Assembly (NCBI GenBank): GCA_902384555.1
Contig: CABMCD010000004.1
Location: forward strand, 11,909-75,908
Direction: 5' to 3'
Length of the DNA: 64,000 bases
DNA from: an uncultured archaeon
GTDB lineage: Archaea; Micrarchaeota; Micrarchaeia; Anstonellales; Anstonellaceae
Both the position numbers and the translations under genes were made by a program. How positions within the stretch are numbered: position 1 is the stretch's first letter; each line of letters starts with the position of its first letter. Shown one piece after another: positions 3,423-43,922 of the stretch. The notes beneath the pieces were generated by a model that was given only the letters and a program-made list of their open reading frames with translations, did not search any database and had not been told where the DNA came from.

Positions 3423-3543
3423 GGCGGACAGACGAGGAGGAGGTTTTAAAACGCGACGGAAAAGGGTGGAAAAGAGAAGGGCGGAGGGCGGAGAAAAATG
3501 GGCCTCCGGCGGATGAAAAACGTCGGGCTTGGATGAAGGCGGC

Positions 3544-12439: not shown

Positions 12440-12447
12440 GTGATATC

Positions 12448-23934: not shown

Positions 23935-24044
23935 GCCCAACCGCCTCCGAGACGGGCAAGCCTCTCGGACAGGGTTTATTAGCCCTCGCGGGCGTGTGTG
24001 GAGAATAGTATATAAATGTGAATATTCATATCAATTCGACGAAT

Positions 24045-26087
24045 ATGGGCACTTATTCCCTCAAAACAACCGCTGCGCGGACCGGGTGGATAACACTCGA
24101 CGGGCAACCCAAAAAGGTCGAGCTGTGCGTCCTGCCGCGCGACGCCATCACGGCCTTCAGCCAGAAGAAGATGGACCGGTTCAATGGCGCGATTCACGTT
24201 TTCCCTGAGCAGAAGGCCGAATACGACAAATGGAGGGCCTATCAAGACAATGGCCACGCGTTCGTCCTCATGGCCATGGGCGAGCAGCTGGCGGCCGAGC
24301 GCCTCGCGCTCGAAACCGCGTTTGCCAAAACCAAAGCCAGACTGGAAGAGGCGAAGAAAACCTGCGACAGGCTGGAAAAGGAAGAATGCCGGGAGGGCAG
24401 GATTTGCGCAAGGCTGGAAGAGCCGCTCAAGGGCCCGATGCGGGAGCGGCAGAAGCTTCTGCAAACCCAGAATGAGCGCTACCGCAAATTGGGCGAGATT
24501 CAGGCCCAGCTCATCGACTTGGAGAAGAAAAACCGCTCCCTCCTGCTCGGGGCTGAAGAAAAGGCAGGTGTAGGACAATGGCTGCAAACATTCTTCGACC
24601 CCGGCGCCGGACGTCCCATGCAGATATGGGACGTCATTCTCAAGGACGCGGAAAGGGGATTGTCGGATTTGGAGATCGTTTGCCGCCTGCTGGAGTTGGC
24701 CGGATTCGGGGCGGCCAATAATCCGAAAACCCTGGATGCGAAACGGCTGGGCGGGCTGGATGAGAAGGTGCTGCAAGAGCTTGAGAGGGGCTGGGCACAG
24801 GTCATCCGGAGCAATCAGGAACTGATGGAGAGGCTGGGAGAATGGGAGGCCGTGCTCGTGCGCACGCGGGACCAGCTCAAGGAAGCGCTGGCCGACATAA
24901 GAGAACAGCGGCGCAAGGAGAGAAACCAGACCGGGCCGAAACTCCCCCTCAAGGAGCGGCTGGCGCAGATGAAGAGACACAAAGCCCGGGACAAAGCCGG
25001 AAAGCGGGCCGAAATGCTCATCAGGCACTTGGAGCTGCAGCTCGCATTCCTGCATAAGATAGAGGATATCGCGGCCGGGGCCAACCGGGCGGTCGAGAGC
25101 CTGCAGGAGCAGGTCGAGCCCAGCCAAAAGCTGGAGGGGCCGCTAAGGAAGCTGGAGCGCACGCAGGAGATGCGGCGGGCGCAGGAGAAAAAAACGGCGG
25201 AGCTGCAGGCCGAATATGACGGGCTGGAGCGCCAGTGTCAAAGCGTGCGGGCGCGGGAGGAAAAGCTGCTGGAGCAGACGAACGAGCTCATCGGGCGGCT
25301 GGACGCGCGCCGCAAGCGCCGGGCGGACTATGAGAAAAGGAAGGTGGAGCGGGCGAACGCCCCCAAACAGAAGGAGGCGCAGGAACTGCACGAGCTGCAA
25401 TGTCAGATTGCCGAGCTGGAACGCGAAGAGCGCAAGAACAAGAAGCGTGAGGAGTGGCTGGGCCGCTTTGACATGGAGAAGCGCAAGGCGGAGGAGCGCC
25501 TCAAAGAACTGGATGAGATTATCCTGACATCAAAACAAAAGCTGGCGGACGAGTTGTGGAACCCCGAGCTCTTTGTGTTCTGCCAGAGCGGCCAGCACAC
25601 GCCAAGGCAGAGGGAGGACTTCGATGAAACGGTGGGCCAGCTGGCCGACCTGTACATGGAAACGGGAGGCAAGCTGACCGCCAATAATCTGCATGCCTGG
25701 TTACCCCGCAGCGCCAAGCCGCAGAACACGGCCTGGATGGACCGAGGCTACCAGCTTATTCGCGTGGGCTTCCACGCCCGCAATTTCGACCGCTTCCTCA
25801 TCGACTTGGCCGAGCCGCCGGAGAGGCCGGGCCTGAACGAGCCGGTGGGCCCCCGAATCTATTTCATAGGCGGAAAGGGAGACTGCGTCAGCTTCATGAA
25901 AAACCGCAAATATGTCAATGAGGAGGCCGCTTCCCAAAATGACTGGCGGGCCGGGCTTTTCAAGCGGGTGCTCGGGCCGGCCATTGAGGCCCAGAAGGAG
26001 ATGGACGAGCTGCTGGGCAACGGGCACGCGAATGGAAACGGCAATGGACAGAATGGAAAAGGAAATGGGGAAAAGAACGGCGCTTAG
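24045..26087 (+). CDS. long coiled-coil protein with possible C-terminal RelE/ParE-like domain
   Basis: E/K/R/L heptad-rich over ~450 aa; C-terminal GYQLIRVG..RFLID..RIYFIG; TATATAAA at 24009. Confidence 0.75.
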   Translation: MGTYSLKTTAARTGWITLDGQPKKVELCVLPRDAITAFSQKKMDRFNGAIHVFPEQKAEYDKWRAYQDNGHAFVLMAMGEQLAAERLALETAFAKTKARLEEAKKTCDRLEKEECREGRICARLEEPLKGPMRERQKLLQTQNERYRKLGEIQAQLIDLEKKNRSLLLGAEEKAGVGQWLQTFFDPGAGRPMQIWDVILKDAERGLSDLEIVCRLLELAGFGAANNPKTLDAKRLGGLDEKVLQELERGWAQVIRSNQELMERLGEWEAVLVRTRDQLKEALADIREQRRKERNQTGPKLPLKERLAQMKRHKARDKAGKRAEMLIRHLELQLAFLHKIEDIAAGANRAVESLQEQVEPSQKLEGPLRKLERTQEMRRAQEKKTAELQAEYDGLERQCQSVRAREEKLLEQTNELIGRLDARRKRRADYEKRKVERANAPKQKEAQELHELQCQIAELEREERKNKKREEWLGRFDMEKRKAEERLKELDEIILTSKQKLADELWNPELFVFCQSGQHTPRQREDFDETVGQLADLYMETGGKLTANNLHAWLPRSAKPQNTAWMDRGYQLIRVGFHARNFDRFLIDLAEPPERPGLNEPVGPRIYFIGGKGDCVSFMKNRKYVNEEAASQNDWRAGLFKRVLGPAIEAQKEMDELLGNGHANGNGNGQNGKGNGEKNGA

Positions 26088-28225: not shown

Positions 28226-30001
28226 TTACATCGGGCCCTTGCTGCGGAACAAGTTCTCGCGCGGCTTCTCGGCCTTTTCGCCACCCTTGCCGGACGGCGG
28301 AACCGAGCCGATGGGCACGCTGGCCCAGTCCGTCACGTCCACGGTGCGCACCTTCATGGGCAGCACGTATTTCTCCCCATCGAAGAGGCGGATGATGCAC
28401 TCGCGCGTGTGCAATTTGACGAACATCTCGCGCTTGCTCTCTTCCAGCTCGGATGGAGAGACGTGTTTTTTGAAGAATTCCTCGACCTTGATTTCCATCA
28501 TGGAAGCCAGCAGGCGCGCATCCTCTTTGGTCACCTTGAAGGAAATCACGTTGCGGGCGTTGGAAATCAGCGAGTCCAGCACCGGCTTGGAGAGCTGGCC
28601 CAAATACTGGGCCGAGGCATACATGCACAAATTGAATTTCCTCGTCTCAGCCATGATGTCCTTGGTGACCTTGCTCTCCACCGTCGGGAACTCGTCCACG
28701 ATGAGCACGGTGGGGTAGGTGAATTTCTCCGAGATGGCCATGATGTACATCTGGTTGATGATGGAGCCGGCGAAGAACTTGATGATGTTGCGCGAGAAGA
28801 AATGCGGGTTGAACGACACCACGGTGACGGGGTTGTTGGCGATGGTGGTGCCCAAGTCCTCCTGGTGGCGCTTCTCGCCCAGATAGAGCAAATACTCGCC
28901 GATGAAGTTGGTGACGGGGAGGATGGCGTCGTTGAAGTGGTGCATGTAGATGTCCTGGAACTCCTTGTCGAAGAAGCGCTTCACTTCGTCGTTCTGGCAC
29001 TGGGCCGTGAATTCCATGCGCTTGCTCGAATCGGTGAGCAGCAGCGAGATGTTTTCCATCGTCAGCTGCTCAATCGAGGCCAGCAGGTGCACCGAATAGA
29101 ACACCACCCGCTCGGCATACTTGCTCTCCTGACCGATGGTGGAGGTGATGAGCTGCGCAATCAGCTGCGCAATCAGCGGGCTCTTGCTCTTGCCCACATC
29201 GAAGGGCTCCACGTAGTTTTGCACGAAGTCAATCACTTTGGCCTGCTTCATGCTTTTGGAAAACTCGCCGTGCGGGTCCACCAGCACGATGTGCGAGTTC
29301 GGATGCTTGGCCCGAATCGCGGCCACGAAGATTTGGATGAACTTGGACTTGCCCGAGCCAGAGGTGCCGACAATGAGGCCGTGCTGGAAGACGTTGAAGT
29401 TGTCCACCCCGATGTTCACGCCATCGGCTGTGAAGATGGGCTGTTTGGAGCTGAAGTAGATGGACTTGGGCACCGGGTCCAATAGCTCGATGTAGAAGAG
29501 CGGGTTGTTCTCCAAATCGATTTCGAGGAATTTGGTGGGGTTGGAGAGGAAGAGCCAGCCGCCCATGCCCTTGTTGTCCACGTATTTGCCGAACCCGTAG
29601 AAGCCGCCCAAAAAGCGGATGACGCGCAGGTGGATTTCGTCCACATTCTCCTTGAGCAGAAAGTCGAAAAGCTGGTGTCCCGAGACGAATTTGAGGCGGG
29701 GGCGCACGCGCACGTTGGGAATCATTTCCACCTCTTTGGGCGGGTTGAGGCGGAAGGGGAAGAGCAGGGCCGACTGCGAATAGAGGTCGCCGGGGTCCTG
29801 CACAAACATCTTGATGGTGTTGGAATAGCGCTTCACCACCAGGTTGATGCCGCCGAACGAGAAGAGGTGGGAGAAGTCGAGGAATTCGAAGAGCGGGATG
29901 TGGCGCCGGATAAGCTGGTCGAAGATGCGCGCATAGTCGGACGCCGTGATTTTGGGCGCATAGATGGAGAGTTCGGAATACTTCTTGGGTTTGCGGGCCA
30001 T
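28226..30001 (-). CDS. HerA/VirD4(TraG)-like P-loop ATPase (DUF87 type)
   Basis: Walker A GTSGSGKS, VDPHGE, Walker B LIVDEF, ETRKFN, AQYLGQL; uncharacterised N-terminal domain, no TM helix. Confidence 0.85.
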   Translation of the reverse strand: MARKPKKYSELSIYAPKITASDYARIFDQLIRRHIPLFEFLDFSHLFSFGGINLVVKRYSNTIKMFVQDPGDLYSQSALLFPFRLNPPKEVEMIPNVRVRPRLKFVSGHQLFDFLLKENVDEIHLRVIRFLGGFYGFGKYVDNKGMGGWLFLSNPTKFLEIDLENNPLFYIELLDPVPKSIYFSSKQPIFTADGVNIGVDNFNVFQHGLIVGTSGSGKSKFIQIFVAAIRAKHPNSHIVLVDPHGEFSKSMKQAKVIDFVQNYVEPFDVGKSKSPLIAQLIAQLITSTIGQESKYAERVVFYSVHLLASIEQLTMENISLLLTDSSKRMEFTAQCQNDEVKRFFDKEFQDIYMHHFNDAILPVTNFIGEYLLYLGEKRHQEDLGTTIANNPVTVVSFNPHFFSRNIIKFFAGSIINQMYIMAISEKFTYPTVLIVDEFPTVESKVTKDIMAETRKFNLCMYASAQYLGQLSKPVLDSLISNARNVISFKVTKEDARLLASMMEIKVEEFFKKHVSPSELEESKREMFVKLHTRECIIRLFDGEKYVLPMKVRTVDVTDWASVPIGSVPPSGKGGEKAEKPRENLFRSKGPM

Positions 30002-30152
30002 ATTTGCACCAATGCAAGGTCAGGGAGTGGAACGGGGCAGAATTTTAACCCCCCGCCTGATTTTAACCATTTTTTATAATATTTTATCACATTTTTGGTA
30101 TTTAAAGGTTCTGCCGGGATTTTGCCCGGTTTCGACAATCGGCGGGAGAAGC

Positions 30153-31766
30153 CTAGGAACGGCCCCGGGCGCCCAGAGAGTAGATGGAAAAGGGCAGGGT
30201 TTTGTCTTTCCCGAGGCGGCCGGCCAAATCGGCCAGAAGCAGTTTTTTGAGCCGCAAAAAGTCCTCCCGCGGCAGCTCGACGTTGCCGATGGCGAAGCGT
30301 TTGCCCTTGACGTTGAAGCAAAAGAGGCACTCTTGGCAGTTTTCGACATGGTGGCAGAAGTAGCAGTCGGAAGAGTCCAGCGAATCGCTCACTTCAAGGC
30401 AGCGCATCAGCCTCAAGGAACGATAGGCGTGGATGCAGCTCTGGGAATAGAAGGTGTGGTCGCAGCCAAACATGCGCTCGGCATTGTGAGAGACCCAGCA
30501 GCCATAAGCGCAGTCCTTGGAATCATACAGGGTGGAGGAGGCAAAGCAGCGCACGGCGTCCGAATAGCTCACCGTGTGGATTGCTTGGGCATTTTGTCCC
30601 AATGCCACCTCGCAGGTGAAGAGGGCAATGGAGGAGAGAAGGGAGCGGGCGTTGGACAAGGACAGGGAGGCCGCGTCGGCCTCGCTGAGCTTCCGCCTGC
30701 CCGCCTCGGCAGCCTCTTCGAGCGCGACATGGGTGTTTCGCACCGGCTCGTTGAAGAGAATGGGCAGCACCCACAGCGGCCGGCCGCTCATGGCCGATTT
30801 GGTTTTGGGCGCGGCGCGCACGTGGCGCATGAGCCACTTCTCGTAATCAGACATGGGGCCCGGGAGCGGGCGGCCCAAGAGCACTTGGCAGGTGGAGGCA
30901 AAAGAGGAGTCGAGAGAGGCAGGGTAGTCGGCCGGGCGGCCGAAATAGGGGGGAGCGGAAATTCCTTCATCCACATTCCAGCTCTTGGGTCTTTTTTCCT
31001 CTTTTCCCGCCCGTGGAGGCCCGCCCAGCAGTTCGGCAATTGAAATAATGTCCTTTTTGCGCTTCAATTCGTCCGCCATTTCGGCCAGCAAATTGGCCTT
31101 GAGCTTGAAGTATTCGTCTTTGGGCAATTCGAGGTTTCCAATCAGATGCCGCTTGCCGGTCTGGTTGAAGGAAAAGAGGCACTCCTGGCAATAGCGCACA
31201 TTGGCCGAGAAATAGACGTCCGAGCAGTACTGGGTATTGGTGGTTTCGAGCATCCGCTGGCTCTTCCAGCCCTGAAAATTCTTGATGACATAATCAATTT
31301 CACCCGTGCAGTCCGAGCCGAACACATAGTTGGACTGGCGCAGCATGGCGCAGTGGGCCACATACTGGCAGTCGGACACGTCCTGTGAGTCTTGCACATA
31401 CTGGACAATGGAGCAGCGATTGGAGCGCTCCACGGCATGGAATTTGCCCAACACCACGTCGCCGGAATAGATGAAGCGTTCCTGCAGAGTGGAGAGCAAG
31501 GAATCCAAATCCTTGATGGAATTGATGTCAAACGCCGCACTGTGCCGCTTCTGGTATTCGGCCTGCTCGGAATTGGAAATATAGCGCACGTCATAGCCGA
31601 AATCGTCGTCTGCGGTGGTGACGGGCCGGTTGGAGAGGCTGGAGCGCCGGCGGGTCTGAACCGGGCCCACATACTTTTTGAGATAAGGCCCGAAATCCGA
31701 AAGCGGGCCGACCTCTTCGTGCAGCAGCACGCGGCAGGTGGAGGCCCAGGCTTCGTTGAGGTCCAT
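30153..31766 (-). CDS. Cys-rich two-module repeat protein, paralog 1 (divergent from Lrp)
   Basis: AWASTCRVLL, IKDLDSL, SDCYFCHHVENCQECLFCFNVKGKRFAIGN. Confidence 0.88.
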   Translation of the reverse strand: MDLNEAWASTCRVLLHEEVGPLSDFGPYLKKYVGPVQTRRRSSLSNRPVTTADDDFGYDVRYISNSEQAEYQKRHSAAFDINSIKDLDSLLSTLQERFIYSGDVVLGKFHAVERSNRCSIVQYVQDSQDVSDCQYVAHCAMLRQSNYVFGSDCTGEIDYVIKNFQGWKSQRMLETTNTQYCSDVYFSANVRYCQECLFSFNQTGKRHLIGNLELPKDEYFKLKANLLAEMADELKRKKDIISIAELLGGPPRAGKEEKRPKSWNVDEGISAPPYFGRPADYPASLDSSFASTCQVLLGRPLPGPMSDYEKWLMRHVRAAPKTKSAMSGRPLWVLPILFNEPVRNTHVALEEAAEAGRRKLSEADAASLSLSNARSLLSSIALFTCEVALGQNAQAIHTVSYSDAVRCFASSTLYDSKDCAYGCWVSHNAERMFGCDHTFYSQSCIHAYRSLRLMRCLEVSDSLDSSDCYFCHHVENCQECLFCFNVKGKRFAIGNVELPREDFLRLKKLLLADLAGRLGKDKTLPFSIYSLGARGRS

Positions 31767-31881
31767 GGAAGAAAATGGGCCGGTTTTATGATTTAAAATT
31801 TGTTTTCAAAATGTTTTAAAATAATTGATAATTTGACTTAAATTTAGATAAAATTAAAAATAAACAGGAAAAAAGAAGAGT
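31767..31881. promoter_or_regulatory. AT-rich divergent promoter/operator region between paralog 1 and the Lrp regulator
   Basis: About 80 nt that are almost pure A/T in a GC-rich genome; several TATA-like boxes; imperfect palindrome AATTTGA-C-TTAAATT. Confidence 0.7.
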
Positions 31882-32883
31882 ATGCAGCCCGCCGGCCCGA
31901 CAGGGCTTGACAAACTGGACCGCTCCATCCTCCACCTGCTCGACCAGGACTCGCGCGCGCCCTATTCCAAGCTTGCGCGCCGCCTGCACACCAGCCCGCA
32001 GGTGGTGAAATACCGAGTCGAGAAGCTCTACGAGCGCCAGCTGCTGCTCGCCTGCTGGCCCATGGTGGAATACCGCGGGCTTGGCTATTTCTTCGGCCTG
32101 CATTTCATCAAGCTGCAAAATCTCACGCCAAAAGAGGAGGAAAAATTCTATGCCTACCTCCACGCGCATCCCTATATCCCCATCGTCATGCGCGCACAGG
32201 GATATGCCGACCTCATTCTGGCCATTGACGGCCGCGGCATCCACCATTTGAGCGAAATCGTGCGCGAGCTGCAGAACCGCTTTTCCACCCATTTCCTGGA
32301 CTGGGACACCGTCATTCCCATCGGCTTTTCGCGCTTCAACCGAAACTATTTGGTGGGAGAAAAAGACCCGACGCCAGACGTGGCCTTCACCGGAGCCCAA
32401 GTTTCGCTTGAAACCGATGAAACCGACCGCAAGCTCCTCTGCATGCTCAATCACGACGCCCGCACGCCGCTGAGCCATATCGCGAAAAAGGCCGGCGTGT
32501 CGGCCGCCACGGCTGCCCAGCGCATCAAGCGGCTGGAAAAGGGCGGGGTGATTCAGTGCTACACCATCCTGCCCGACCACGTGAAGCTGGGCTGGCCCCG
32601 CCACCGCGTGCTCATCAAGTTCAAGAACCTCACTGAAGAGCAGGAGCGCCGCTTCTTTTCCTACTGCAATTTGCACCCCCACATCGTGCACCACATCAAG
32701 TGTTTGGGCAACTGGGACTGCGCCATTGACATCGAAATCGAAACCGGGGAGCGCCTGCGCGAGGTGCTGATGGACATCAAATCGAAATTCTCTGAAGTGG
32801 TGCAGCGCATCGAGCCCAGCTACATCTACAAAATAGACCGGTTCCGCGACATTCCGGACGAGTTTCCCCAGCTTAACAAGTGA
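31882..32883 (+). CDS. Lrp/AsnC-family regulator with two tandem HTH-RAM units
   Basis: LDKLDRSILHLLDQDSRAPYSKLAR and DETDRKLLCMLNHDARTPLSHIAKK HTHs, each followed by a RAM-like domain (GYADL; GNWD). Confidence 0.92.
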   Translation: MQPAGPTGLDKLDRSILHLLDQDSRAPYSKLARRLHTSPQVVKYRVEKLYERQLLLACWPMVEYRGLGYFFGLHFIKLQNLTPKEEEKFYAYLHAHPYIPIVMRAQGYADLILAIDGRGIHHLSEIVRELQNRFSTHFLDWDTVIPIGFSRFNRNYLVGEKDPTPDVAFTGAQVSLETDETDRKLLCMLNHDARTPLSHIAKKAGVSAATAAQRIKRLEKGGVIQCYTILPDHVKLGWPRHRVLIKFKNLTEEQERRFFSYCNLHPHIVHHIKCLGNWDCAIDIEIETGERLREVLMDIKSKFSEVVQRIEPSYIYKIDRFRDIPDEFPQLNK

Positions 32884-34489
32884 GTGGGCTTATTTTTTTG
32901 CCGCCAAGGCTGTAGATGGACCAGGGCAGGACTTTGTCTTTCTCGAGGCGCGAAGCCAGCTCGGCCAGCACCATCTTCTTCACGCGCAGATATTGCTCGC
33001 GCGGGTATTCGACGTTTCCTATCGCATATCGTTTTGCCTTGATGTTGAAGCAGAACATGCACTCTTGGCAGTTCTCGATGTTGTGGCAGAAGAAACAGTC
33101 CGAGCAGTTGTTGCAGTTGTCCAGCTCGAAGCAGCGGCTCACTTTGGTGGAGAAATGGCAGTTGATTCCAAACGAGCTTTCCCGCGCCTCCCGGCAGCCG
33201 AAGAGAAATTCGCACGAGCGGGGCATCAGGCAGTAGGCGCACGATTTGGACAGCATGAACAGCACGCCATGATAGCAGTCGCTGGAGTCGATGGCCAGCG
33301 GAGCCTCGATATCGTTGGACAGCTTGCCGGTGCGCCAAGTGTGGCAGAAATAGGCCAGAGGGCCGATGAGGGCGGGAGCCGTGCGCAGGGACAAGCCTTT
33401 CACTTCCTCTTCACCCAGCGCGGCATGCTCGCCAAAGAAATCGGCCTGTGGTTGGGTGAGCAGGCGCTCGGGCGGGAAGGACATGAAATTGGAATAATCC
33501 ACCCGCCACAACTCTTCGCCGCTGGCGCAGGATTTGGCCTTCTCCATATGGACGGCCGAATTGGACCCCAGCAGCTTGGCATAGGCACCCACCGGACCCA
33601 TGCGCTTGCCGAGCAGCACTTGGCTGGTCTGGCCAAAAGCCTCCTCAATTTTGCTCTGGTCTTCGGCTTCGGCCTTCCATTTGCCCCACTCCGGCAGGGC
33701 CATCACGGCCTTGAGCTTGGAGTGGTCGGGTTTGCGGTTGGCCGTCATTTCCACCAGCGAGGGCAGCCTCTTCTTTTCAGACAATTCCGTGCGCATTTCC
33801 TCCAGCAGCTTGGCCTTGATTTGCAGGTATTGGTCTTTGGGCAGGGCGAGGTTGCCGATGCGCCTGCGCTGGTTCTTGAGATGGAAGGAAAAGAGGCATT
33901 CCTGACAGCCGGTAAGGCCGTGCGAATAATAGCAGTCGGAGGAAAATTCGGATTTGGAGAGCATGAGCGAGCGCATGCAGTCCCACGTGGCCGAGGTGCG
34001 GATGCAGTAGTGCACCGGCCCCATGCCGTGGCAGCCGAAGAGGTAGTCGCTGTATCCGCCCCGGGAGCAATAGGCGGCAAATTTGGAGAACGCCACCCGC
34101 TCGCAGTGATGCGTGTGAAAGCAGTCGGTGATGACGGTGCTGTCCTGCACGAACTTGGAGTTGCCCAGCACGATGTTGCCGCAATAGATGGCGCGCTCCG
34201 ACACCGCCTCGGCCAGCGAGTCGATGTCTTTTATTTCGTTGATGGAGAGGGGGCCGTATTGGGCGTTCAAGTCCAGCTCGTCATAGCTGGCCATCCGGAC
34301 TGCCTTTGGGTAATTGGAATAAACCGAAACCACGTCCTTGCCCGAGAGGCAGGAGGGGCGCACCATGCGCGGGCCGTGGTCTTCCAAAAGCCAGTTCTCG
34401 AATTCGTAAAGCCCGCCGACTTCGCCGCCCAGCACGGTGCGGCAGGTGCTGCGCCAGGCCTCTTCCAGTTCGGCGGACGGCTTGCTCAT
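32873..34489 (-). CDS. Cys-rich two-module repeat protein, paralog 2
   Basis: AWRSTCRTVLG, IKDIDSL, SDCFFCHNIENCQECMFCFNIKAKRYAIGN; ATGA overlap with the upstream gene. Confidence 0.9.
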   Translation of the reverse strand: MSKPSAELEEAWRSTCRTVLGGEVGGLYEFENWLLEDHGPRMVRPSCLSGKDVVSVYSNYPKAVRMASYDELDLNAQYGPLSINEIKDIDSLAEAVSERAIYCGNIVLGNSKFVQDSTVITDCFHTHHCERVAFSKFAAYCSRGGYSDYLFGCHGMGPVHYCIRTSATWDCMRSLMLSKSEFSSDCYYSHGLTGCQECLFSFHLKNQRRRIGNLALPKDQYLQIKAKLLEEMRTELSEKKRLPSLVEMTANRKPDHSKLKAVMALPEWGKWKAEAEDQSKIEEAFGQTSQVLLGKRMGPVGAYAKLLGSNSAVHMEKAKSCASGEELWRVDYSNFMSFPPERLLTQPQADFFGEHAALGEEEVKGLSLRTAPALIGPLAYFCHTWRTGKLSNDIEAPLAIDSSDCYHGVLFMLSKSCAYCLMPRSCEFLFGCREARESSFGINCHFSTKVSRCFELDNCNNCSDCFFCHNIENCQECMFCFNIKAKRYAIGNVEYPREQYLRVKKMVLAELASRLEKDKVLPWSIYSLGGKKISPLTC

Positions 34490-36072
34490 GGCTTGCACCC
34501 CAGATTGAAGATGGAGAGCGGGAGGGTTTTATCCTTTTCCAGACGGGCCGCCAGCTCGGCCAGCACCGTCTTCTTGATGCGCAAATAGTCTTCCTTCTTC
34601 ATTTCCACATTTCCGATGGCATACCGCTTGCCTTTCACGTTGAAGCAGAAGAGGCACTCCTCGCAATTCTCGACATTGTGGCAGAAATAGCAGTCGGTCG
34701 AGCTGTTGCAGGAATGGCATTCCAGACAGCGGGACAAATGGGCCGACAGGCAGCAGTTGGCGCAGAATTTCGAGTCGCGGATGGCATGGCAGCCGAAGCA
34801 GGACTCGGACTCCAGATAGTAGTAGCCATAGGCGCAGTTCTTGGAGGTGACGTGGACCACGCTTTGCAGCATGTTGGAGCAGTCCACGCCGATGAAGTCC
34901 AGATGGTTGTTGAAGTTCTTGCCCACGAAATAGTCGGAGCAGAAAAAGGCCGCATCGGAGACGGCCTTGAACATGCTCTCAAAGGAGGGCGTTGCGCTGG
35001 GCTCGGTCATGCGCGTTTCGCGGCCCAAAAAGAGGGCGTCCGCTTCCCCAACGAGGCGGTCGTGGGGGTAGAAGGAGAAGGCGGCATAATCCGGCAAGCC
35101 GATGCTCGCGCCGGGACGCAGGGAGGGATAGTGATAGATGGCGCGCGCCGTCTGGGAGAGCCAGGGGCCATAGGGCGCAATGGGGGAGAGCGGGCGGCCC
35201 AGCAAGATAGACATGGTTTTGGAAAATGACTCTTCCACGGGCTTGGGGTTCCAGGGCTTCGCAGCGGCGGGCGGGGCGCGCGAGAGCAGGGCTTGGGTTT
35301 TGGCACGGTCAAAGGAGAGCGAGGCGATGCGCTCCTCCAAGCGAGGCAAGGTGCGCTTGTCCTGAAGCTCGTGCGCCATTTGCTCCATCAGCGCCTTCTT
35401 GAGGGCCACATACTTGTCTTTGGGCAGCTGCAAATTTCCAATGCAATAGCGCGAGCTGCGCAGGCCGAAAGAAAACAGGCAGTCGTTGCACTCGTGGATG
35501 TTGTGGCAGTAGGCGCAGTCATTCACATAGCTGGAATGCGACACTTCGAGGCAGCGCACGTTCTTGTCGTTGTTGCTGATGCCGATGCAGTAAGAGCAAT
35601 GGCCGTGATTTTGAGAGCCGAAAATGCAGTCCCCGTATTCGAGGCAGTAGGAATAGGCGATGTATTTGGAGAACGAGATTTGGGTGGATTCGAGCACATA
35701 ATGCGAGTCAATGACGTCCGAGCTTGATTGCACATGGGCCGACTTGCCCAGCACGATGTCGCCGGTGTAGATGAAGCGCTCGCCGAGGGCGGAGAGGATG
35801 GAGTCGATGTCTTTGAGCTGGTCAAGCGGGAGAGGCGCATAGGTTTTTTTCCAGTCCACTTCGCCCAAAGACTGGAAAGAGCCGCACTCGTGCGCGCCGG
35901 TGGATACCAGAGCGACCTCTTTTCCTGAAAGGCAGGACTTTTGCTTGGCGGGCGGGCGCGAGCGGCTCTCCAAATAATTGGAATAGTGGGAGAGCTCCCC
36001 GAGCTCTTGGCCAAAAATGACTTTGCAGGTGCTGGCCCAGCGGGAGTTGAGGGTGTCGTAGGGCTCGCTCAT
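34486..36072 (-). CDS. Cys-rich two-module repeat protein, paralog 3
   Basis: True start MSEPYDTL at 36072 (ATGA overlap); RWASTCKVIFG, LKDIDSI, TDCYFCHNVENCEECLFCFNVKGKRYAIGN. Confidence 0.9.
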   Translation of the reverse strand: MSEPYDTLNSRWASTCKVIFGQELGELSHYSNYLESRSRPPAKQKSCLSGKEVALVSTGAHECGSFQSLGEVDWKKTYAPLPLDQLKDIDSILSALGERFIYTGDIVLGKSAHVQSSSDVIDSHYVLESTQISFSKYIAYSYCLEYGDCIFGSQNHGHCSYCIGISNNDKNVRCLEVSHSSYVNDCAYCHNIHECNDCLFSFGLRSSRYCIGNLQLPKDKYVALKKALMEQMAHELQDKRTLPRLEERIASLSFDRAKTQALLSRAPPAAAKPWNPKPVEESFSKTMSILLGRPLSPIAPYGPWLSQTARAIYHYPSLRPGASIGLPDYAAFSFYPHDRLVGEADALFLGRETRMTEPSATPSFESMFKAVSDAAFFCSDYFVGKNFNNHLDFIGVDCSNMLQSVVHVTSKNCAYGYYYLESESCFGCHAIRDSKFCANCCLSAHLSRCLECHSCNSSTDCYFCHNVENCEECLFCFNVKGKRYAIGNVEMKKEDYLRIKKTVLAELAARLEKDKTLPLSIFNLGCKP

Positions 36073-37661
36073 TTTTTGCCTCTGGAACCGATGGAATAGA
36101 TGGACAAACCGAGATTTTTGTCTTTTTCCAAGCGGGCCGAGACTTCGGCCAGCACCATCTTCTTCACGCGCAGAAATTCCTCCTTGGGATATTCGACATT
36201 TCCAATCGCGTAACGCTTGGCTTTCACGTTGAAGCAGAACATGCACTCCGAACAATTTTCGATGTTGTGGCAGAAGAGGCAGTCCGAGCTGGAAAATGAC
36301 GAGTCGCACTCGAAGCAGCGCTGCAGCTTGACGGAGTTGTAGCACTTGAGGCAGGAGGCGGACTGCAGCACGATTTGGCAGCCGAATACGCTGTCCGAAT
36401 TGCGGGGCCAGAAGGAGTAGGCGCAGCGCTGGTCCTCCACCGAATTCGAGCAGCGGTAGCAGTCGCCCGAATCGATGTTGATGGGGCAGTCGATGCTGTT
36501 GAGGCACTGGCCCTCCCTTTTTTCGGGGCACATGTAAGCCACCGGGCCCATGATGGAAACCGCCTTGGAAAAGTCGAACGAGCGGGCCGCCTCCTCGCCG
36601 ATGCCCGCCAGTTCCCCAAGCGCCGCGCTCTCGTCGAGGCGCACCAGGCGGTTCGCGGGCATGGCGGCCTGCGGAGGATAGGAATTGCGCAGCACGGGCT
36701 TTTTGGAAACCGCGGACGGGGTGGCCCGGACGGCATAGGTGTCCCGCTCCAGCCATTGGGCATAGTGGTCCAGCCCGCGCAGGGGCTTGCCCAGAACCAG
36801 TTGGCTGGTGCGCGCGAACGCTTCCTCCACGCCGGCCATGCTCTGGCCGGGCGGGCTGGCGGAGCGGCGCTCGTCCGCCGAAATGGAGGGTGGCGCGCCG
36901 GCGCATTTTCCAACCAGCTCGAAAAGGGAGGGCAGGCGTTTTTGGGCTTCCAGCTCGTCCGCCATCTGCTCCTTGAGATGGGCCTTGGTCTTGAGATATT
37001 GCGAGCGCTCCAACTTCTGGTTTCCGATGCAATATGATTTGGCGTGCAGGTTGAAGCAGAACAAGCATTCCTGGCAGCCTTCGCAGCTGGCCACGTAATG
37101 GCAGTCCGAGCAGGTGTTGGAATTGTGCGCTTCGAACGAGCGGCGGGTCTGGCGCATCTGCTCGCAGCGCACCAGGCACTCGTTCCCGGCGCCCAGCATC
37201 ATGCAGCCGAACAGCCGCTCGGAAAGCCGCACGTCGGTGCAGTAGGCCGCGCATTTGGAGGCGTCTATCTTGCTGGACTCCAGCACATAATAGCTGTCGC
37301 TGACATTGCAGCTGCCCTGCACCTCCTGGGACGAGCCCAGCACCACTTCTCCGCAATAGACGGCCCGCTCACGCAGGGCTTGGGCCAGCGAATCCAAGTC
37401 CTTTATCTGGTTCAGGCCGATGGGCGCTTCGCGCCTTGAGAAATCAATCTGCGCAAGAGGCAGGAATTGGGCGTTGGGAGGGTAATTTCGGATGGCCAGC
37501 GTGACCGCCGGCCCTCCGTCCATGGACGGGCGCGTGAACACCGGATTCGACAGCTCGCACAGCCACGGCTTGTAGGGGAGCAAACCACCCACGGAGCGGC
37601 CGAAGAGCACTTGGCATGCGCTGGCCCATTCCCTTTCCAGCAGGTCCAGCGGCCCGGTCAT
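36069..37661 (-). CDS. Cys-rich two-module repeat protein, paralog 4
   Basis: EWASACQVLFG, IKDLDSL, SDCLFCHNIENCSECMFCFNVKAKRYAIGN. Confidence 0.9.
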   Translation of the reverse strand: MTGPLDLLEREWASACQVLFGRSVGGLLPYKPWLCELSNPVFTRPSMDGGPAVTLAIRNYPPNAQFLPLAQIDFSRREAPIGLNQIKDLDSLAQALRERAVYCGEVVLGSSQEVQGSCNVSDSYYVLESSKIDASKCAAYCTDVRLSERLFGCMMLGAGNECLVRCEQMRQTRRSFEAHNSNTCSDCHYVASCEGCQECLFCFNLHAKSYCIGNQKLERSQYLKTKAHLKEQMADELEAQKRLPSLFELVGKCAGAPPSISADERRSASPPGQSMAGVEEAFARTSQLVLGKPLRGLDHYAQWLERDTYAVRATPSAVSKKPVLRNSYPPQAAMPANRLVRLDESAALGELAGIGEEAARSFDFSKAVSIMGPVAYMCPEKREGQCLNSIDCPINIDSGDCYRCSNSVEDQRCAYSFWPRNSDSVFGCQIVLQSASCLKCYNSVKLQRCFECDSSFSSSDCLFCHNIENCSECMFCFNVKAKRYAIGNVEYPKEEFLRVKKMVLAEVSARLEKDKNLGLSIYSIGSRGKK

Positions 37662-39256
37662 TTTTTCGCCCCGATGTTGTAGATGGACAGGCCGAGCGTT
37701 TTGTGTTTTTCCAATTTGGAGGCCAGCTCGGCCAGCACGAGCTTCTTGATTTTGAGAAATTCTTCCTTGGGATACTCAACATTACCAATCGCAAATCTCT
37801 TGGCTTTCACGTTGAAACAAAACATGCATTCGGAGCAGTTCTCGATGTTGTGCGAGAAATAGCAGTCCGAGCACTGGTGCGAGTCGCTCACCTCAAAGCA
37901 GCGCTGGAGCTTGCGCGAATTGGAGCATTTCATGCAAAAGGCCGACTCCCACGTGACATAGGAGCCGAAGATGTTTTCCGAATTGTCGGGCCAGAAGGAA
38001 TAGGCGCATTTCTTGCAGCGGATGTTGGCCGAGCCCATGTAGGAATCCTGCGCGTCGATGGTGACCGCGCTGCCTTTCACGTTGACGTTGTGGCCCACCA
38101 CCTTGTCCAAATCACTGTAGGCCACCTTGTGTATGGAGCGGCAAACCGAATCCAGATTCGAGGCATCCAATCCGGCCGCATCCTTCTCTTCAATGGCAAA
38201 ATCAGCCACCCGCTGCACCTCATCATCCGGCAACAGGCGCCCGTCCAGATGGTAAATATCGCCGATTATTTTTCTATAACCGGCAATGAGCGCCTCGCGG
38301 CCGGAAAAGGGGGAGCGCAGGGGCACATTGGCGGGCACATGGGAGTAGAGCCAGCCCGCATAATCTTCAAGCTGGCCCAAGTCTTGGCCCAAGAGCAGGC
38401 GGCTGGTGTCGGAAAAGGCCTGTTGGATGGGGGCCATGTTGAATTTGGGCTCCGACCATTTGGTGCGGATTTGGATTTCGGGCTTGTATGGCCGGCAGGC
38501 CTGCAAAATGGAGAAAAGGGAGTAGAGTTTGCGCTTCTTTTTCAGCTCGCCGGCCATTTCGGCCACAAGCTTGGATTTGAGGGCAAAATACCGCGCTTTG
38601 GGAAGCTGCAGATTCCCAATCAGGAAAGACTTACCCCGCCCGCCAAACGAGAACAGGCAGTCGCTCGAGTTCTGCATGCTGCCGCAGTAATAGCAGTCGG
38701 TCACGATTTCGGAGGAATGGCACTCCAAGCAGCGGGTGAATTTGCTTCCCGAGCACTTGATGGAGGTGGAGGATTTGATGGTACCATACAACCCAAAGCA
38801 GTATTCCGAATTGTTGAGATAGCGCGAATAGGCGCAGTATTTGGAGGCGTCCATCAGGCTGCATTCGTAGATGAAATGACTGTCGATGACATCGGTGCTT
38901 CTTTCCACACCAGTAGATTTGCCCAAAATGATGTTGCCGGCATAATAGAAGCGCTCCGACACGGCTTCGAGGATGGAATCGATGTCCTTGATTTGGTTCA
39001 GGCTCATGGGCGCGTATGATTTGCCATAATCCAGCTCGCCCAGAGCCGCGTATTTGGCGGTTGGGGCATAATCGTTGATGGAAAGAGCCACCGCCTCGCC
39101 CGAAATAGAGGAGCGCCGCTCATGCGGCAGCTCCAGAGAGTCGGAAAGCCAGGGCCCGTATTCCTTGAGCTCACCCAGCGGCTCTCCAAAAATGATTTTG
39201 GACGTGCTGGCCCATGCCCGGTTGAGCGCCGAATAAGTTTCAGAAACCGTGCTCAT
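37658..39256 (-). CDS. Cys-rich two-module repeat protein, paralog 5
   Basis: True start MSTVSETY at 39256; AWASTSKIIFG, IKDIDSI, SDCYFSHNIENCSECMFCFNVKAKRFAIGN. Confidence 0.9.
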   Translation of the reverse strand: MSTVSETYSALNRAWASTSKIIFGEPLGELKEYGPWLSDSLELPHERRSSISGEAVALSINDYAPTAKYAALGELDYGKSYAPMSLNQIKDIDSILEAVSERFYYAGNIILGKSTGVERSTDVIDSHFIYECSLMDASKYCAYSRYLNNSEYCFGLYGTIKSSTSIKCSGSKFTRCLECHSSEIVTDCYYCGSMQNSSDCLFSFGGRGKSFLIGNLQLPKARYFALKSKLVAEMAGELKKKRKLYSLFSILQACRPYKPEIQIRTKWSEPKFNMAPIQQAFSDTSRLLLGQDLGQLEDYAGWLYSHVPANVPLRSPFSGREALIAGYRKIIGDIYHLDGRLLPDDEVQRVADFAIEEKDAAGLDASNLDSVCRSIHKVAYSDLDKVVGHNVNVKGSAVTIDAQDSYMGSANIRCKKCAYSFWPDNSENIFGSYVTWESAFCMKCSNSRKLQRCFEVSDSHQCSDCYFSHNIENCSECMFCFNVKAKRFAIGNVEYPKEEFLKIKKLVLAELASKLEKHKTLGLSIYNIGAKK

Positions 39257-40827
39257 CTGCCCCGGCCCCCTAGAGCGCACACATCCAGTTTGATGTCGCC
39301 CTCTTTCTCCAATTGGCGCACGAGCTCGGCCTGCACCATTTGCTTGATTTGCATGAATTTCTCCCTGCCCACTTCCACATTTCCAATCGCATAGCGCAAA
39401 CTCTTGGTATTGAAACAGAACATGCAGTTCTCCAGATTCTCGCAGTTGTGGCAGAACATCGAGTTGGAGCAGCTCTTGCACGAGTCGAGGTCCATGCTGG
39501 CCGTGCAGTCCATGCAGTCATGGCAGCGGATGCAGAACTTGCAGTTGGTAATCAGGATGCCGCAGCCGAACACGGCCTCGCAGCGGGTGGCATGGGTGCA
39601 ATAGGCGCTCTTTTTGGTGTAGGTGGCGTCCGCGATGTGGTAAACGTCGGCGCAGAAATAGCGGGTGGGGGTGAGGGCGAAATTCACGTTGTCGCCCTCG
39701 TTGAAGTCGGCGCAGTAAAACGCGATGGAGGACATGCGGCGCGCCAAATCCGAAAGAGCGGTGCGCTCGTCGCATTGCAGCACTTGCTGGCCCAGCACAT
39801 AGGCCTCCTCCTGGTTGATGAGCCGCGTCTTGGGCGCGTGGCGGGCCCAGAAATATTCGGAATAGGGCACTTCATTTCCGAACGGACTGGAGGCGCTCTG
39901 CACCGAAGCCACGTGATGCGAGAGGAATTTCTCAAATTTGGAGAGGGGGCCGAACTCCTTGCCCAATACCAGTTTGGTGGTGAGCTTGAAGGCATCATCC
40001 ATGGGCGACAGGCTGAAGGGCAGGGGGGCCTTCTGGGGGGCCGAGAGGCCGGCCATGGCCCCGGAGGCAGGCGGAGCGTAGTCGAAAATGGAATAGAATT
40101 TCTGGTGCTGGTCGATGTAGTCGGCCGCTTCGGCCACCAGTTTCGCGCGCAGGGCGAAATACTGGTCTTTGGGCAGTTCGCGGTTGCCGATGCAGTAGCG
40201 TTTGCTGCGCTGGTTGAAGGAGAACATGGTGTGCGCGCAGCCATGGCAGAAGAAGCAGAAGAACAGGTCCGAATTGTTGGTGGAGAAATAGGTCTCAAAG
40301 CTGCGCACCAGGTCGGCCGCGCCCAGCACCTTGATGAGAAATTTGCTGCGAATAAAGACGCCGGAGCCGAAGACGTGCTCGGACGCGTCGCGCACGTAGG
40401 AGGAATAGGCCACGTTCTTGGACTGCACGACGCTGTGCGAATTCTCCACCTTGAAGCTGTCGGTGCAGTTGTCCGAATATTCGGCCTCTTGGGTGTTTCC
40501 GAACATCTTGTTGCCCGCATAATAGAAGCGCTCGGACAGAGTGAAATAAAGGGAATCGATATCCTTGATGTCGTTGATGGAAAGCGGGGCCCCTTTTTTG
40601 GAAAAGTCGATTTCATCCTGCGAGATGAAGCGGGCATTCGGGGCATAGCGCTCGGCCGCGATGGCCACGGTCTTGCCCGACAGGGCGGAGGCGCGCCGGC
40701 TGGTGGGGTAGTGGTATTGGAGCATGTAGTCTTGGAGGCCCTCCAGCGAGTGCTTGGACTCGCGGCCGAAAATGAGCTGATAGGTGGTCTGGAAAGAGCG
40801 GTTGAGTTCGTCGCTGAGCGGGCTCAT
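39253..40827 (-). CDS. Cys-rich two-module repeat protein, paralog 6
   Basis: SFQTTYQLIFG, IKDIDSL, SNSMFCHNCENLENCMFCFNTKSLRYAIGN. Confidence 0.9.
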   Translation of the reverse strand: MSPLSDELNRSFQTTYQLIFGRESKHSLEGLQDYMLQYHYPTSRRASALSGKTVAIAAERYAPNARFISQDEIDFSKKGAPLSINDIKDIDSLYFTLSERFYYAGNKMFGNTQEAEYSDNCTDSFKVENSHSVVQSKNVAYSSYVRDASEHVFGSGVFIRSKFLIKVLGAADLVRSFETYFSTNNSDLFFCFFCHGCAHTMFSFNQRSKRYCIGNRELPKDQYFALRAKLVAEAADYIDQHQKFYSIFDYAPPASGAMAGLSAPQKAPLPFSLSPMDDAFKLTTKLVLGKEFGPLSKFEKFLSHHVASVQSASSPFGNEVPYSEYFWARHAPKTRLINQEEAYVLGQQVLQCDERTALSDLARRMSSIAFYCADFNEGDNVNFALTPTRYFCADVYHIADATYTKKSAYCTHATRCEAVFGCGILITNCKFCIRCHDCMDCTASMDLDSCKSCSNSMFCHNCENLENCMFCFNTKSLRYAIGNVEVGREKFMQIKQMVQAELVRQLEKEGDIKLDVCALGGRGR

Positions 40828-42407
40828 GGTTTTGCCCCCACATTATAGATGTCCAAGTCGAGCTTTTTATCCTTCCCCAACGTGTGCGCGATTTCAGCGA
40901 GCAGCATTTTCTTGACCCGCAAGTAGTCCTCTTTTTTCATTTCCACGTTTCCAATCGCATATCGCTTCGCCTTCACGTTGAAGCAGAACATGCAGTCTTG
41001 GCAGTTCTCGATGTTGTGGGAGAAGAGGCAGTCCGAGCAGTCGCGGCTGGAATCCAGCTCAAAACAGCGGGTGAGCTTGAGCGAGTAATAGCAGTTCACG
41101 CAGCAGGAGGAATCGAAGATGGTGTCGCAGCCGAAGCAGGACTCGGAGCGCACGCACCAGAACGAATAGGCGCAAAGCTTGGAATACACCGGGGCGGCCA
41201 TGCGGTAGCAGTCGGAGGAATGGACGCTGACCACGCAATAGACGATGTTGCTGTTCTGTCCAATCCAGAAGTCCATGTCGAAATAGGCCAGCTTGGAAAT
41301 CAGTTCGTGCGCGTTGGAAAGGCAGATGCGCTCGACCCGGCCCGGGTCCGCCTGAACGGACTGGCCGATGGCATCGGCCTCGCGCATGCCCACCACGCGG
41401 TCTTTGGGAATGGGAATGAGGGACATGGTCTTGGGGCAGACGCCCAGGGGCTTGGCGCTGATGGCCGAGCGGCGCTCCTCCATGGGCTTTACATGGCGCA
41501 GCAGCCAGGGCCCGTAATCGTCAATATCCGAGAGAGGCTTTTCGAAAAGGGTCTTGGAGGCTTGTGAGAAGGCCCCCTCGATTTGGCGCCGGTCGCTGGA
41601 CGGGGAGGAGTTCTCGTCTTCGGGGGCGCCGCGGATGGCGGGCTTGTCGGATGCGCACCGGCCGGCGATGTCCATCAGAGTGGGCAGGGACTTTTTCTCC
41701 CTAAGCTCACGGACCATCTCGCCCAGCAGCCGCCGCTTGACGGCCGCATACTGCGCCGGTTCCAGCTGGACGTTGCCCACGCAGTGGCGCCGGTTCTTGA
41801 GATGGAAGCAGAAGATGCAGTCCTGGCAGTTGTCCAGACCGTAGCTGTAATAGCAGTCCGAGCAATGGGTGCAGTTCCAGGCTTCCAGGCTGCGCTTGAC
41901 GCGCACCAGCTGGCTGCAGCTGACGCAAAAGGCCGATTCACCCGGCCCGTAGGAGCCGAACACGCACTCGTTCTCGCGGCCGAAGCTTATTTTGAGGCAG
42001 TATTTCGACGCGCTGTGCTGCATGGTTTCGTACACATAGTAGCAGTCCGACACGTTGGAGCTTCGGCTGACCTCCCGTGAATTGCCCAGCACGATGTTGC
42101 CGGCATAGCAGACGCGCGGACGCAGCGATTCGGCCAGCTCGGCCAGCGAGCGGGCGCGGATTTCACCCAAGGGCGGGGCTTTGGCGGAAAAATCCACCTC
42201 GTCCAGGCTGATGAACCGCCCGCCCGCGTATTCCCGCGACTCGTAGATGACGTCCTGGCCGGACACGGACGATTTTTTCGTGAAAACCGGGCCCGGATGG
42301 ACGCCCAGCCAAGGCAGGAAGGCTTCGAGCCCGCCCACTTCCTCGCCCAGCACGATGCGGCAGGTTTCCTTCCATTTCTGCTCGAGGGTGTCCATCGGCT
42401 CGCTCAT
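40824..42407 (-). CDS. Cys-rich two-module repeat protein, paralog 7
   Basis: True start MSEPMDTL at 42407; KWKETCRIVLG, SDCLFSHNIENCQDCMFCFNVKAKRYAIGN. Confidence 0.9.
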   Translation of the reverse strand: MSEPMDTLEQKWKETCRIVLGEEVGGLEAFLPWLGVHPGPVFTKKSSVSGQDVIYESREYAGGRFISLDEVDFSAKAPPLGEIRARSLAELAESLRPRVCYAGNIVLGNSREVSRSSNVSDCYYVYETMQHSASKYCLKISFGRENECVFGSYGPGESAFCVSCSQLVRVKRSLEAWNCTHCSDCYYSYGLDNCQDCIFCFHLKNRRHCVGNVQLEPAQYAAVKRRLLGEMVRELREKKSLPTLMDIAGRCASDKPAIRGAPEDENSSPSSDRRQIEGAFSQASKTLFEKPLSDIDDYGPWLLRHVKPMEERRSAISAKPLGVCPKTMSLIPIPKDRVVGMREADAIGQSVQADPGRVERICLSNAHELISKLAYFDMDFWIGQNSNIVYCVVSVHSSDCYRMAAPVYSKLCAYSFWCVRSESCFGCDTIFDSSCCVNCYYSLKLTRCFELDSSRDCSDCLFSHNIENCQDCMFCFNVKAKRYAIGNVEMKKEDYLRVKKMLLAEIAHTLGKDKKLDLDIYNVGAKP

Positions 42408-43165
42408 TTGGGGCACCCCACGTTGAAGACGTTCAAATCCAGCTTCTGGTCTTTTTGCAGCTTGGCCGAGATTTCGGCCAGCACCAGCTTTTTGACGCGC
42501 AAATATTCCTCCTTGGGATAGGAATGGTTGAAGATGGCGTAGCGAAGCGATTTGGCGTTGGTGCAGAAGAGGCATTCGGAGCAGGCGTCCACGTTGTAGC
42601 AGAAATAGCAGTCGGAAGAGTTGGAGGAGTGCGACACCTCAAAGCAGCGCGTCAAATTCACGGAATTGTAGCATTTGAGGCAGAATTTGGAGTGGAAGAC
42701 GACATTGACGCCGAAGAGGTATTCGGAATTGCGGGGCCAGAAGGAGTAGCCGCTGTATTTGCTGTGCACGAAGGAGCTTCCTTTGGAGCAGAAGCTGGAG
42801 AAGCCGTAGATGCCGCACTCGTCCACCGCCTCGTTTTGGCCGATGACCCATTCCGGCGTGTGGAAGGCGAGCGACCGCGTGAGTTTCTTGGCGTTGGAGA
42901 GGTTGATGGACAGGGCGTCCGCCTCGCTTAAGTGCCGGGCCCCCAGCGGGGCGGCCTCATCCTCTTTGAGGGCCGTGGAGAGAATGTGATAATAGAAGCT
43001 CAAGGGGGGCGAGTAGACCGTGCGCCCGCTGATGGGGGATTTGGACAAAATGTCGGGGCGGGTGTTCTGCCGCAGCCACGCCTCGTAGGGCCCGATGGGG
43101 CCCAAAGAGCGGCCCAAGAGCGTGCGGGTGAGGGTGTCGAACGCCTCCTGTACCTTAGGGTGCAT
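42404..43165 (-). CDS. Cys-rich single-module protein (C-module type), paralog 8
   Basis: VQEAFDTLTRTLLG, YSFWPRNSE, SDCYFCYNVDACSECLFCTNAKSLRYAIFN; own SD GGGGGAG. Confidence 0.88.
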   Translation of the reverse strand: MHPKVQEAFDTLTRTLLGRSLGPIGPYEAWLRQNTRPDILSKSPISGRTVYSPPLSFYYHILSTALKEDEAAPLGARHLSEADALSINLSNAKKLTRSLAFHTPEWVIGQNEAVDECGIYGFSSFCSKGSSFVHSKYSGYSFWPRNSEYLFGVNVVFHSKFCLKCYNSVNLTRCFEVSHSSNSSDCYFCYNVDACSECLFCTNAKSLRYAIFNHSYPKEEYLRVKKLVLAEISAKLQKDQKLDLNVFNVGCPK

Positions 43166-43922
43166 CCGCTCCCCCCAAAATGTCCAGTATGGACAAGGTG
43201 TTTTTCTTGGATTTCAATTCCGAGCGCACCTGCTCCAAGAGGCTTTTTTTCACCGCCAAGTATTTGGACGGCTCCAGCGCCAAATTGCCGATGAGGTGCC
43301 GCCGGTTGCGCTGGTTGAAGGTGAAGAGGCAGTCCGAGCAGCCCCACAGGTTGGAGGTGTAGTGGCAGTCCGAGCTCTCGAAGGTGATGTTGGTCTCGAA
43401 GCAGCGCTGCTGCCGATAGGTCTGGAAGCAGCGGATGAGGTATTTGGCCTCCCCCGACCAGTTGACGCCGAAGATGTACTCGTCGAGGCGCGCGAGGGAG
43501 GAATAGGCCACGAACTTGCCGCTCCACACCTGCTGGGACTTGTACACCACTTGCGAGTCGATGATATTGTCGGATTCGGCCACATCAAAGGAATTTCCGG
43601 TGACCTGGTCGGCCGCGTAAAAGAAGTGGGGGGAGATTTCGGACAGGATGGACTCGATGTCCTTGATTTGGTTGAGGTTGAGCTTCACGTCCGAGATTTT
43701 TTTGTTGTAGGCGTCCTGCTCGGCCAGGGAGATGAATTTGGCGGCCGGGCAGAAATAGGGGACCGAGACGGGGAGGCTCTGCCCGCCCAGAGCCGACTTT
43801 TTGGAAAAGATGGGCTCCACGTATTGGGTAAGATAGGCCTCGTAGGTTTTCAGCTCGCCGATTTCGCCGCCCAGCACGATGCGGCAAGTGGCCTTCCATG
43901 CATCATTGATGTCCAAACCCAC
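43155..43922 (-). CDS. Cys-rich single-module protein (N-module type), paralog 9
   Basis: DAWKATCRIVLG, IKDIESI, SDCHYTSNLWGCSDCLFTFNQRNRRHLIGN; GTG start 3 nt after the guaAA stop. Confidence 0.87.
   Translation of the reverse strand: MGLDINDAWKATCRIVLGGEIGELKTYEAYLTQYVEPIFSKKSALGGQSLPVSVPYFCPAAKFISLAEQDAYNKKISDVKLNLNQIKDIESILSEISPHFFYAADQVTGNSFDVAESDNIIDSQVVYKSQQVWSGKFVAYSSLARLDEYIFGVNWSGEAKYLIRCFQTYRQQRCFETNITFESSDCHYTSNLWGCSDCLFTFNQRNRRHLIGNLALEPSKYLAVKKSLLEQVRSELKSKKNTLSILDILGGADAP

Follow-up and report, generated by a model that had tools for sequence, protein, structure and literature searches.

The 64,000-nucleotide stretch of DNA analysed here, called the window in what follows, belongs to an uncultured archaeon of the Micrarchaeota (family Anstonellaceae; contig CABMCD010000004.1, positions 11,909 to 75,908) and carries, between positions 30153 and 43922, nine paralogous genes for Cys-rich beta-solenoid proteins, most of them made of two homologous modules (N and C), with the gene for a soluble ATPase (28226-30001) just downstream. 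Judged from sequence comparison, the solenoid family is undescribed, and the nine solenoid genes and the ATPase very probably form one functional system. What this system would do is a far more tentative matter: it is conceivable, at somewhat less than an even chance, that the solenoid units are swappable, signal-induced specificity (adaptor) subunits of one ring ATPase.

The link between solenoids and ATPase is seen in their co-occurrence. Across 251 genomes of the phylum, at least 80% complete, the family was found in 48, of which 43 belong to the same order (none of the 65 genomes of one large taxonomic family carries it), and the ATPase in 45, mostly once; both genes occur in 43, an overlap counted by hand in which one genome (G053) figures on the strength of a 42-residue solenoid remnant. 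Within the same order, 40 genomes have both, 3 the family only, 2 the ATPase only and 42 neither, presence being patchy inside genera and the genus tallies of family and ATPase nearly coinciding. Two genomes from a distant taxonomic family (G063 and G231), seemingly family-only, carry a divergent ATPase followed immediately by one and six single-module genes, and in another (G023) the family gene is cut by a contig end right after the ATPase. Regarding physical proximity, 31 of 74 family loci have the ATPase no more than about 4 kb away, the 74 being top-scoring loci that lean towards arrays.

Besides the arrays, the pair exists in a minimal form, namely a two-gene operon with the ATPase followed by one helix-capped beta-roll protein of about 235 aa. 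Homology between this single-module form and the N module has a probability of 99.8%; the proteins most similar to it measure about 232 aa at about 50% identity, and its few relatives with taxon names come from Levybacteria, Woesebacteria and a Patescibacteria-group bacterium, i.e. bacteria of the candidate phyla radiation (CPR). Among 47 metagenome loci, some of which are near-duplicates, 30 encode an ATPase at least 32% identical; the solenoid comes right after it in 25 of these, a contig edge in 3, and the solenoid is missing in 2. L190, which belongs to the 17 weaker loci, has two modules downstream as well. The other neighbours are varied and mostly housekeeping, and no nuclease, SIR2 or other effector is conserved among the neighbours in the loci. 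Some genomes hold a compact unit of Lrp, ATPase and solenoid (L114, L144, L158). In this Micrarchaeota order, N and C modules pair either fused or as adjacent genes, N then C (the order C+N was found in 0 of 137 fused genes), and the two halves of a unit tend to point to the same partner loci, as is clear for the split pairs on C16 and C29. Two further observations concern the surroundings: the CPR-type operon adjoins recA-recX in L166, L167 and L170, with an RNase Y gene on the opposite side in L166 and L170, and a PALP (pyridoxal-phosphate-fold) protein with a hydrophobic segment and a tail that varies is encoded close to the ATPase in 10 of the 47 loci (L107:5350-7203, L119:9835-11214 and 8 more), which may reflect lineage synteny or an accessory part.

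In the window, nine paralogous open reading frames of 253-538 aa, all intact and all on the minus strand, lie within 30153..43922, seven of them 524-538 aa long, one 253 aa and one 255 aa. Alignment and module profiles resolve them into 16 modules, i.e. seven fused N+C genes, an N-only gene (43155-43922) and a C-only gene (42404-43165), the latter two forming a split pair, which gives eight N+C units across the region. The array given in a preliminary description of this DNA is real: ATGA stop/start overlaps are found at six junctions (34486, 36069, 37658, 39253, 40824 and 42404) and an 11-nt overlap at the seventh (43155/43165). The features are as follows.

28226..30001, minus strand: predicted soluble ATPase of the HerA/FtsK/VirD4 superfamily, 591 aa (Pfam matches, motifs, no transmembrane window, co-occurrence)
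30002..30152, no strand: 151-bp gap upstream of the ATPase gene, 56% AT, a possible promoter (sequence)
30153..31766, minus strand: g9, fused N+C solenoid, 537 aa, facing the Lrp gene (module profiles; orthologue in L008)
31767..31881, no strand: putative divergent promoter region between g9 and Lrp, 115 bp, 79% AT (base composition; palindrome count)
31882..32883, plus strand: tandem (two-unit) Lrp/AsnC-type regulator, 333 aa (Pfam)
32873..34489, minus strand: g8, fused N+C solenoid, 538 aa, final gene of the coupled run (module profiles)
34486..36072, minus strand: g7, fused N+C solenoid, 528 aa (module profiles)
36069..37661, minus strand: g6, fused N+C solenoid, 530 aa, the modelled protein (structure prediction)
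37658..39256, minus strand: g5, fused N+C solenoid, 532 aa (module profiles)
39253..40827, minus strand: g4, fused N+C solenoid, 524 aa, most divergent member of the run (paralog identities)
40824..42407, minus strand: g3, fused N+C solenoid, 527 aa (module profiles)
42404..43165, minus strand: g2, C-type single module, 253 aa, second half of the split pair (module profiles)
43155..43922, minus strand: g1, N-type single module, 255 aa, GTG start, first half of the split pair (module profiles)

As the Lrp gene lies on the plus strand, divergent from g9 and convergent with g8 (with which it overlaps tail-to-tail by 11 nt), the region consists of a coupled run of eight genes and a ninth gene with separate promotion, not of one nine-gene operon; from the nine-gene coupled array with a dedicated Lrp proposed at first, the coupling is retained for eight genes, and the Lrp faces g9 only. 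The eight-gene run starts 3 nt past the stop of the gene preceding g1, which encodes a GATase (GMP synthase A-type) and belongs to a GMP-synthase/CNNM/MarC/MgtC cluster, and may be read through from it. The ATPase gene is the first gene downstream of g9; HerA had been listed among the neighbours to map, yet the ATPase, the strongest partner, was absent from the title of that description. On the strand opposite the Lrp gene, an open frame of more than 330 codons is seen in the window (31882-32889, minus strand) as well as in L008 (7279-8320, plus strand), and a Lrp-solenoid fusion in L008 was rejected as only apparent, this antisense open frame running into the solenoid gene.

As judged from its matches and motifs, the product of 28226-30001 is an ATPase of the HerA/FtsK/VirD4 superfamily. 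In Pfam it matches DUF87 (E 2.8e-10, above cut-off) and TrwB_AAD_bind (E 1.4e-8), and the Walker A, Walker B, arginine-finger (E-x-R-K-F) and Gln sensor motifs are kept, with G230, G235, K236, D459, E460, E475, R477, K478 and Q488 invariant in 38 sequences. ATPases of the HerA/FtsK clade are reported to work as hexameric motors (PMC12857230). Four genomes (G083, G090, G108 and G127) carry two ATPase copies, the additional one often preceded by a divergent gene for Lrp or TrmB, whether or not a solenoid is present.

The solenoids have no family match in Pfam, NCBIfam or PADLOC (one chance NCBIfam row, E 0.62) and no sequence match in the PDB (four chance rows, E 0.6-0.9), which upholds the earlier view of an undescribed family; one weak PHROG match (E 4e-5) is of unknown function. 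No Pfam family is common to the 30 nearest Atlas clusters, the candidate YdhT_N (score 0.79) concerns 10% of members, and a cluster named 'Caib/baif family protein' (template modelling score 0.59), presumably a misannotation, has an aligned part without Pfam family. Structure prediction for g6 yielded the beta-solenoid fold that had been proposed (predicted local distance difference test, pLDDT, 91.5; predicted template modelling score, pTM, 0.91), both modules carrying helical regions before and after the solenoid, while the model of the single-module form is less confident in the solenoid (pLDDT 53-75 by block). In solenoids and ATPase alike, 19-residue hydropathy windows reach at most 1.36, so that no transmembrane window is present, as stated before for the solenoids. 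Ten residues are common to N, C and single modules (G, S, K, E, S, F, I, N, Y and K), six of them in the C-terminal quarter. In the literature, no description of the solenoid family or of the ATPase-solenoid pair was found, supplements and most subscription journals lying outside the search, and the family tables of PMC8204110 may list these proteins without comment.

Almost all homologues with taxon names belong to Micrarchaeota, including Anstonellaceae. The present genome holds 20 family genes with 16 N and 16 C modules (a lone N and a lone C stand at contig ends), i.e. about 2% of its 1.3 Mb by a rough sum, and among 31 relatives, 13 have 3-28 family matches and 18 have none found. Overall, there are 1 to 28 matches per genome, and many copies are scattered singly with separate regulators. 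A profile search gave 349 clusters (50% identity) at E <= 1e-30, 887 at 1e-10 and 2176 at 1e-3. No relative was met in viral contigs (0 of 164 pattern matches), in phage records or in BFVD (E <= 0.001), and plasmids gave a single 21% match, to the ATPase.

The sequence divergence indicates that the paralogs are old, maintained subfamilies. They are 29-41% identical, and their synonymous sites, already noted as diverged, are saturated (proportion of synonymous differences, pS, 0.56-0.68). With a proportion of nonsynonymous differences (pN) of 0.26 for a pS of 0.67, the conserved C-terminal tail appears to be held by selection and not by conversion; recent gene conversion was discarded on this pS and on a longest exact shared DNA of 30 nt. 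Each of the 32 modules of this genome resembles some module of another genome more than it does any of its own, which speaks against a rapidly diversifying repertoire; overall, the nearest relative lies in the same genome for only 15 of 114 N modules and 16 of 113 C modules, the other genomes being partially sampled. Neither are the copies decaying neutrally, since the ratio of nonsynonymous to synonymous rates (dN/dS) between orthologues is 0.09, 0.24 and 0.36 in the three solenoid pairs where dS could be measured, dS being saturated in two more. The g9 orthologue in L008, found in the same Lrp/ATPase context, is 67% identical, with dN/dS about 0.09.

Regarding regulation, the Lrp at 31882-32883 matches the HTH_AsnC-type family of Pfam in two stretches (E 2.6e-27), and its ligand domain is weakly shown (AsnC_trans_reg, E 3e-4, below cut-off). 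Tandem Lrp genes are divergent within 300 bp of a family gene in 12 of 30 cases against about 0.25 expected, in six genomes chosen for carrying the family and with a profile in which 9 of the 11 sequences were themselves neighbours; the previously suggested link to Lrp regulators is borne out, and the same profile also found 15 Lrp genes without a family gene within 1 kb. Among 422 N-module hits, which may include mis-typed modules and whose regulator-labelled loci are cut at short flanks, there are 23 divergent tandem-Lrp, 14 tandem HTH_10 and 10 divergent TrmB-type pairings. Of the 14 HTH_10-linked solenoids, 13 group in a single clade of 24 with poor support, the identities of Lrp and solenoids are correlated (r 0.54, 0/5000 permutations), and a T-run/A-run palindrome, a pattern chosen after looking, occurs in 11 of 23 divergent gaps vs. 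4.7 expected. In L030 (G000:C3:575-4216), a methyltransferase with an AlaE-like domain stands between two tandem Lrp genes, from which it follows that tandem Lrp regulators serve other genes too. Toxin-antitoxin-like pairs (MarR/DUF6036, AbiEii/AbiEi and HicAB) are also seen in or beside two arrays (L005:6384-8013 and 11272-12488; L006:3649-4081).

In the adaptor reading preferred here, the products of the nine genes would be partner subunits for one soluble ring ATPase, that of the gene just downstream, each N+C unit docking on the hexameric ATPase via the conserved capping region and turning its beta-roll, the more variable face, towards a nucleic-acid or protein substrate, which the ring would translocate or remodel in the cytoplasm. 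The regulators would choose the unit made, giving one motor many signal-dependent specificities. More broadly, and with less assurance still, this could be a modular motor common to CPR bacteria and DPANN archaea, i.e. a soluble VirD4/HerA-clade ring with interchangeable beta-roll heterodimers, enlarged in some Micrarchaeota to up to about 28 genes each with a small-molecule sensor, the substrates or cargo of which would be tied to the symbiotic lifestyle.

Several observations weigh against such a scheme. Only 50 of the 422 N-module hits were labelled with an adjacent Lrp, HTH_10 or TrmB-type regulator, most being without, and the eight-gene run has no promoter gap of its own, starting as it does 3 nt after a housekeeping GATase gene. 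The solenoid third of N modules is only modestly more variable than the rest (identity 0.35 vs. 0.42), and C modules vary most in the cap. Concerning the pairing itself, three genomes (G007, 100%; G029, 96%; G053, 93% complete) have the ATPase with no intact solenoid found, three fragmented ones (G166, G220 and G182; 60-170 contigs) have the family with no ATPase found, and the solenoid is missing in 2 of the 27 informative metagenome loci. Furthermore, related genomes are not independent, so that the Fisher and Mantel values overstate the association.

Among the alternatives, the solenoids could be cargo, the ATPase acting like a type IV coupling protein (T4CP) or a type VII EccC-type ATPase that exports N+C units to the surface or to a host, where the beta-roll would bind its target. 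The T4CPs (VirD4/TrwB/TraG) belong to the same ATPase superfamily, the window ATPase having a TrwB_AAD_bind match, and those known are reported to recruit substrates using accessory factors (PMC12857230). Such export is unlikely here. Unlike T4CPs, the window ATPase lacks the expected membrane anchor (19-residue hydropathy maximum 1.36), no channel or relaxase gene is conserved near it in the 47 loci, the VirB4 family (PF03135) was not found in the 92%-complete genome, other channel families not having been searched genome-wide, and the partner is an unnamed beta-roll family.

It is less probable again that the N+C units are the blocks of a cytoplasmic filament or scaffold assembled or dismantled by the ATPase, with translational coupling setting the ratios. 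Helical caps usually stop the end-to-end growth of solenoids, and helical regions flank the solenoid in both modules of the g6 model; a copy number ranging from 1 to 28, with many scattered single copies under separate regulators, also argues against fixed building blocks.

An anti-virus or anti-plasmid system, in which a HerA-type motor would be set off once the solenoids recognise proteins or DNA of an invader, appears weaker still. HerA is known from complexes with dedicated partners (HerA-NurA, SIR2-HerA and DUF4297-HerA), where, as here, a soluble HerA-clade ATPase is encoded directly beside its partner gene; the patchy presence inside genera would fit defence, as would the weak similarity that the ATPase shows to mad8 and defence HerA models (E 2e-12 to 1e-3) and to HerA chains in the PDB. 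In contrast to these complexes, the solenoid partner has no recognisable nuclease or NADase domain and reaches 28 matches per genome. The sequence matches are weak and local, those to defence models spanning mostly the Walker A region (35 bits for a cut-off of 800), the neighbours are varied housekeeping genes devoid of a conserved nuclease, SIR2 or other effector, and the paralogs are old and conserved, not fast-turning. A comparison can also be drawn with the pentapeptide-repeat DNA mimics MfpA/Qnr, which are acidic and, with the MfpB NTPase, offer another case of beta-solenoids encoded beside an NTPase; the present solenoids differ in being near neutral (net charge -3 to +5), for which reason DNA mimicry by acidity is not supported, and in having no Pfam pentapeptide match.

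As for the Cys ladder, the fused proteins hold 21-33 Cys each, with autocorrelation peaks at lags 3 and 12, the 12-residue periodicity being shared with the Tenebrio antifreeze protein (1ezg). Two-sided beta-rolls such as the ryegrass ice-binding protein (3ult), the YadA/UspA1 adhesin heads and a domain of phi29 gp12 (3gq7) may be counted among the closest known systems. In 112 close homologues, several positions are 90-98% Cys and none is invariant, the Cys alternating with Ser, Ala, Thr and Val; the most Cys-rich positions have 82-88% Cys across 216 sequences, in which 11 pairs spaced six apart show no co-variation (mean phi -0.03), which rules against a disulfide beta-helix of the Tenebrio type. 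No Cys is among the ten residues common to N, C and single-module forms, and single-module homologues have 3.2% Cys for 11.7% Ser. The Cys/Ser ladder is thus best read, from these substitution patterns, as the small-residue core of a narrow coil and not as the metal or Fe-S site suspected at first. A metal, Fe-S or redox sink is very improbable despite the abundance of Cys and a C-module H465 that, with neighbouring N, E and K, is invariant or nearly so in the 112 homologues and may mark a local site, since no Cys is invariant, paired Cys do not co-vary, the single-module form is richer in Ser than in Cys and an ATPase partner would be superfluous for a sink. Among Cys pairs, co-variation is strongest (phi 0.77) between positions 61 and 526 of P0001, i.e. 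the N-module cap and the C-terminus; g1 and g2 seem to have both Cys, and a contact or a subfamily signal is possible.

Elsewhere in the window, the plus-strand gene at 24018-26087, convergent with glmS, encodes a 689-aa mostly coiled-coil protein with no Pfam family (a weak SMC row, E 0.02), and a 359-aa orphan (22858-23934) sits divergently ahead of it. On the minus strand, nucleoside-phosphorylase-family and IF-2B-family genes stand together at 884-3578, a pairing known from the AMP-to-RuBisCO pathway.

Large paralog families are rarely kept by genome-reduced archaea, and this one is under purifying selection. In Patescibacteria, 5,713 VirD4-like genes have been counted, of which 148 are near virB4 and thousands far from it (PMC12102498). 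The conserved soluble two-gene unit gives some of these far-from-virB4 ATPases an expressible partner and, if true, the modular motor reading would give a function to part of the coupling-type ATPases found far from virB4. The regulator pairing offers in turn a route to function, as each Lrp, through its ligand, should tell under which conditions its solenoid is required.

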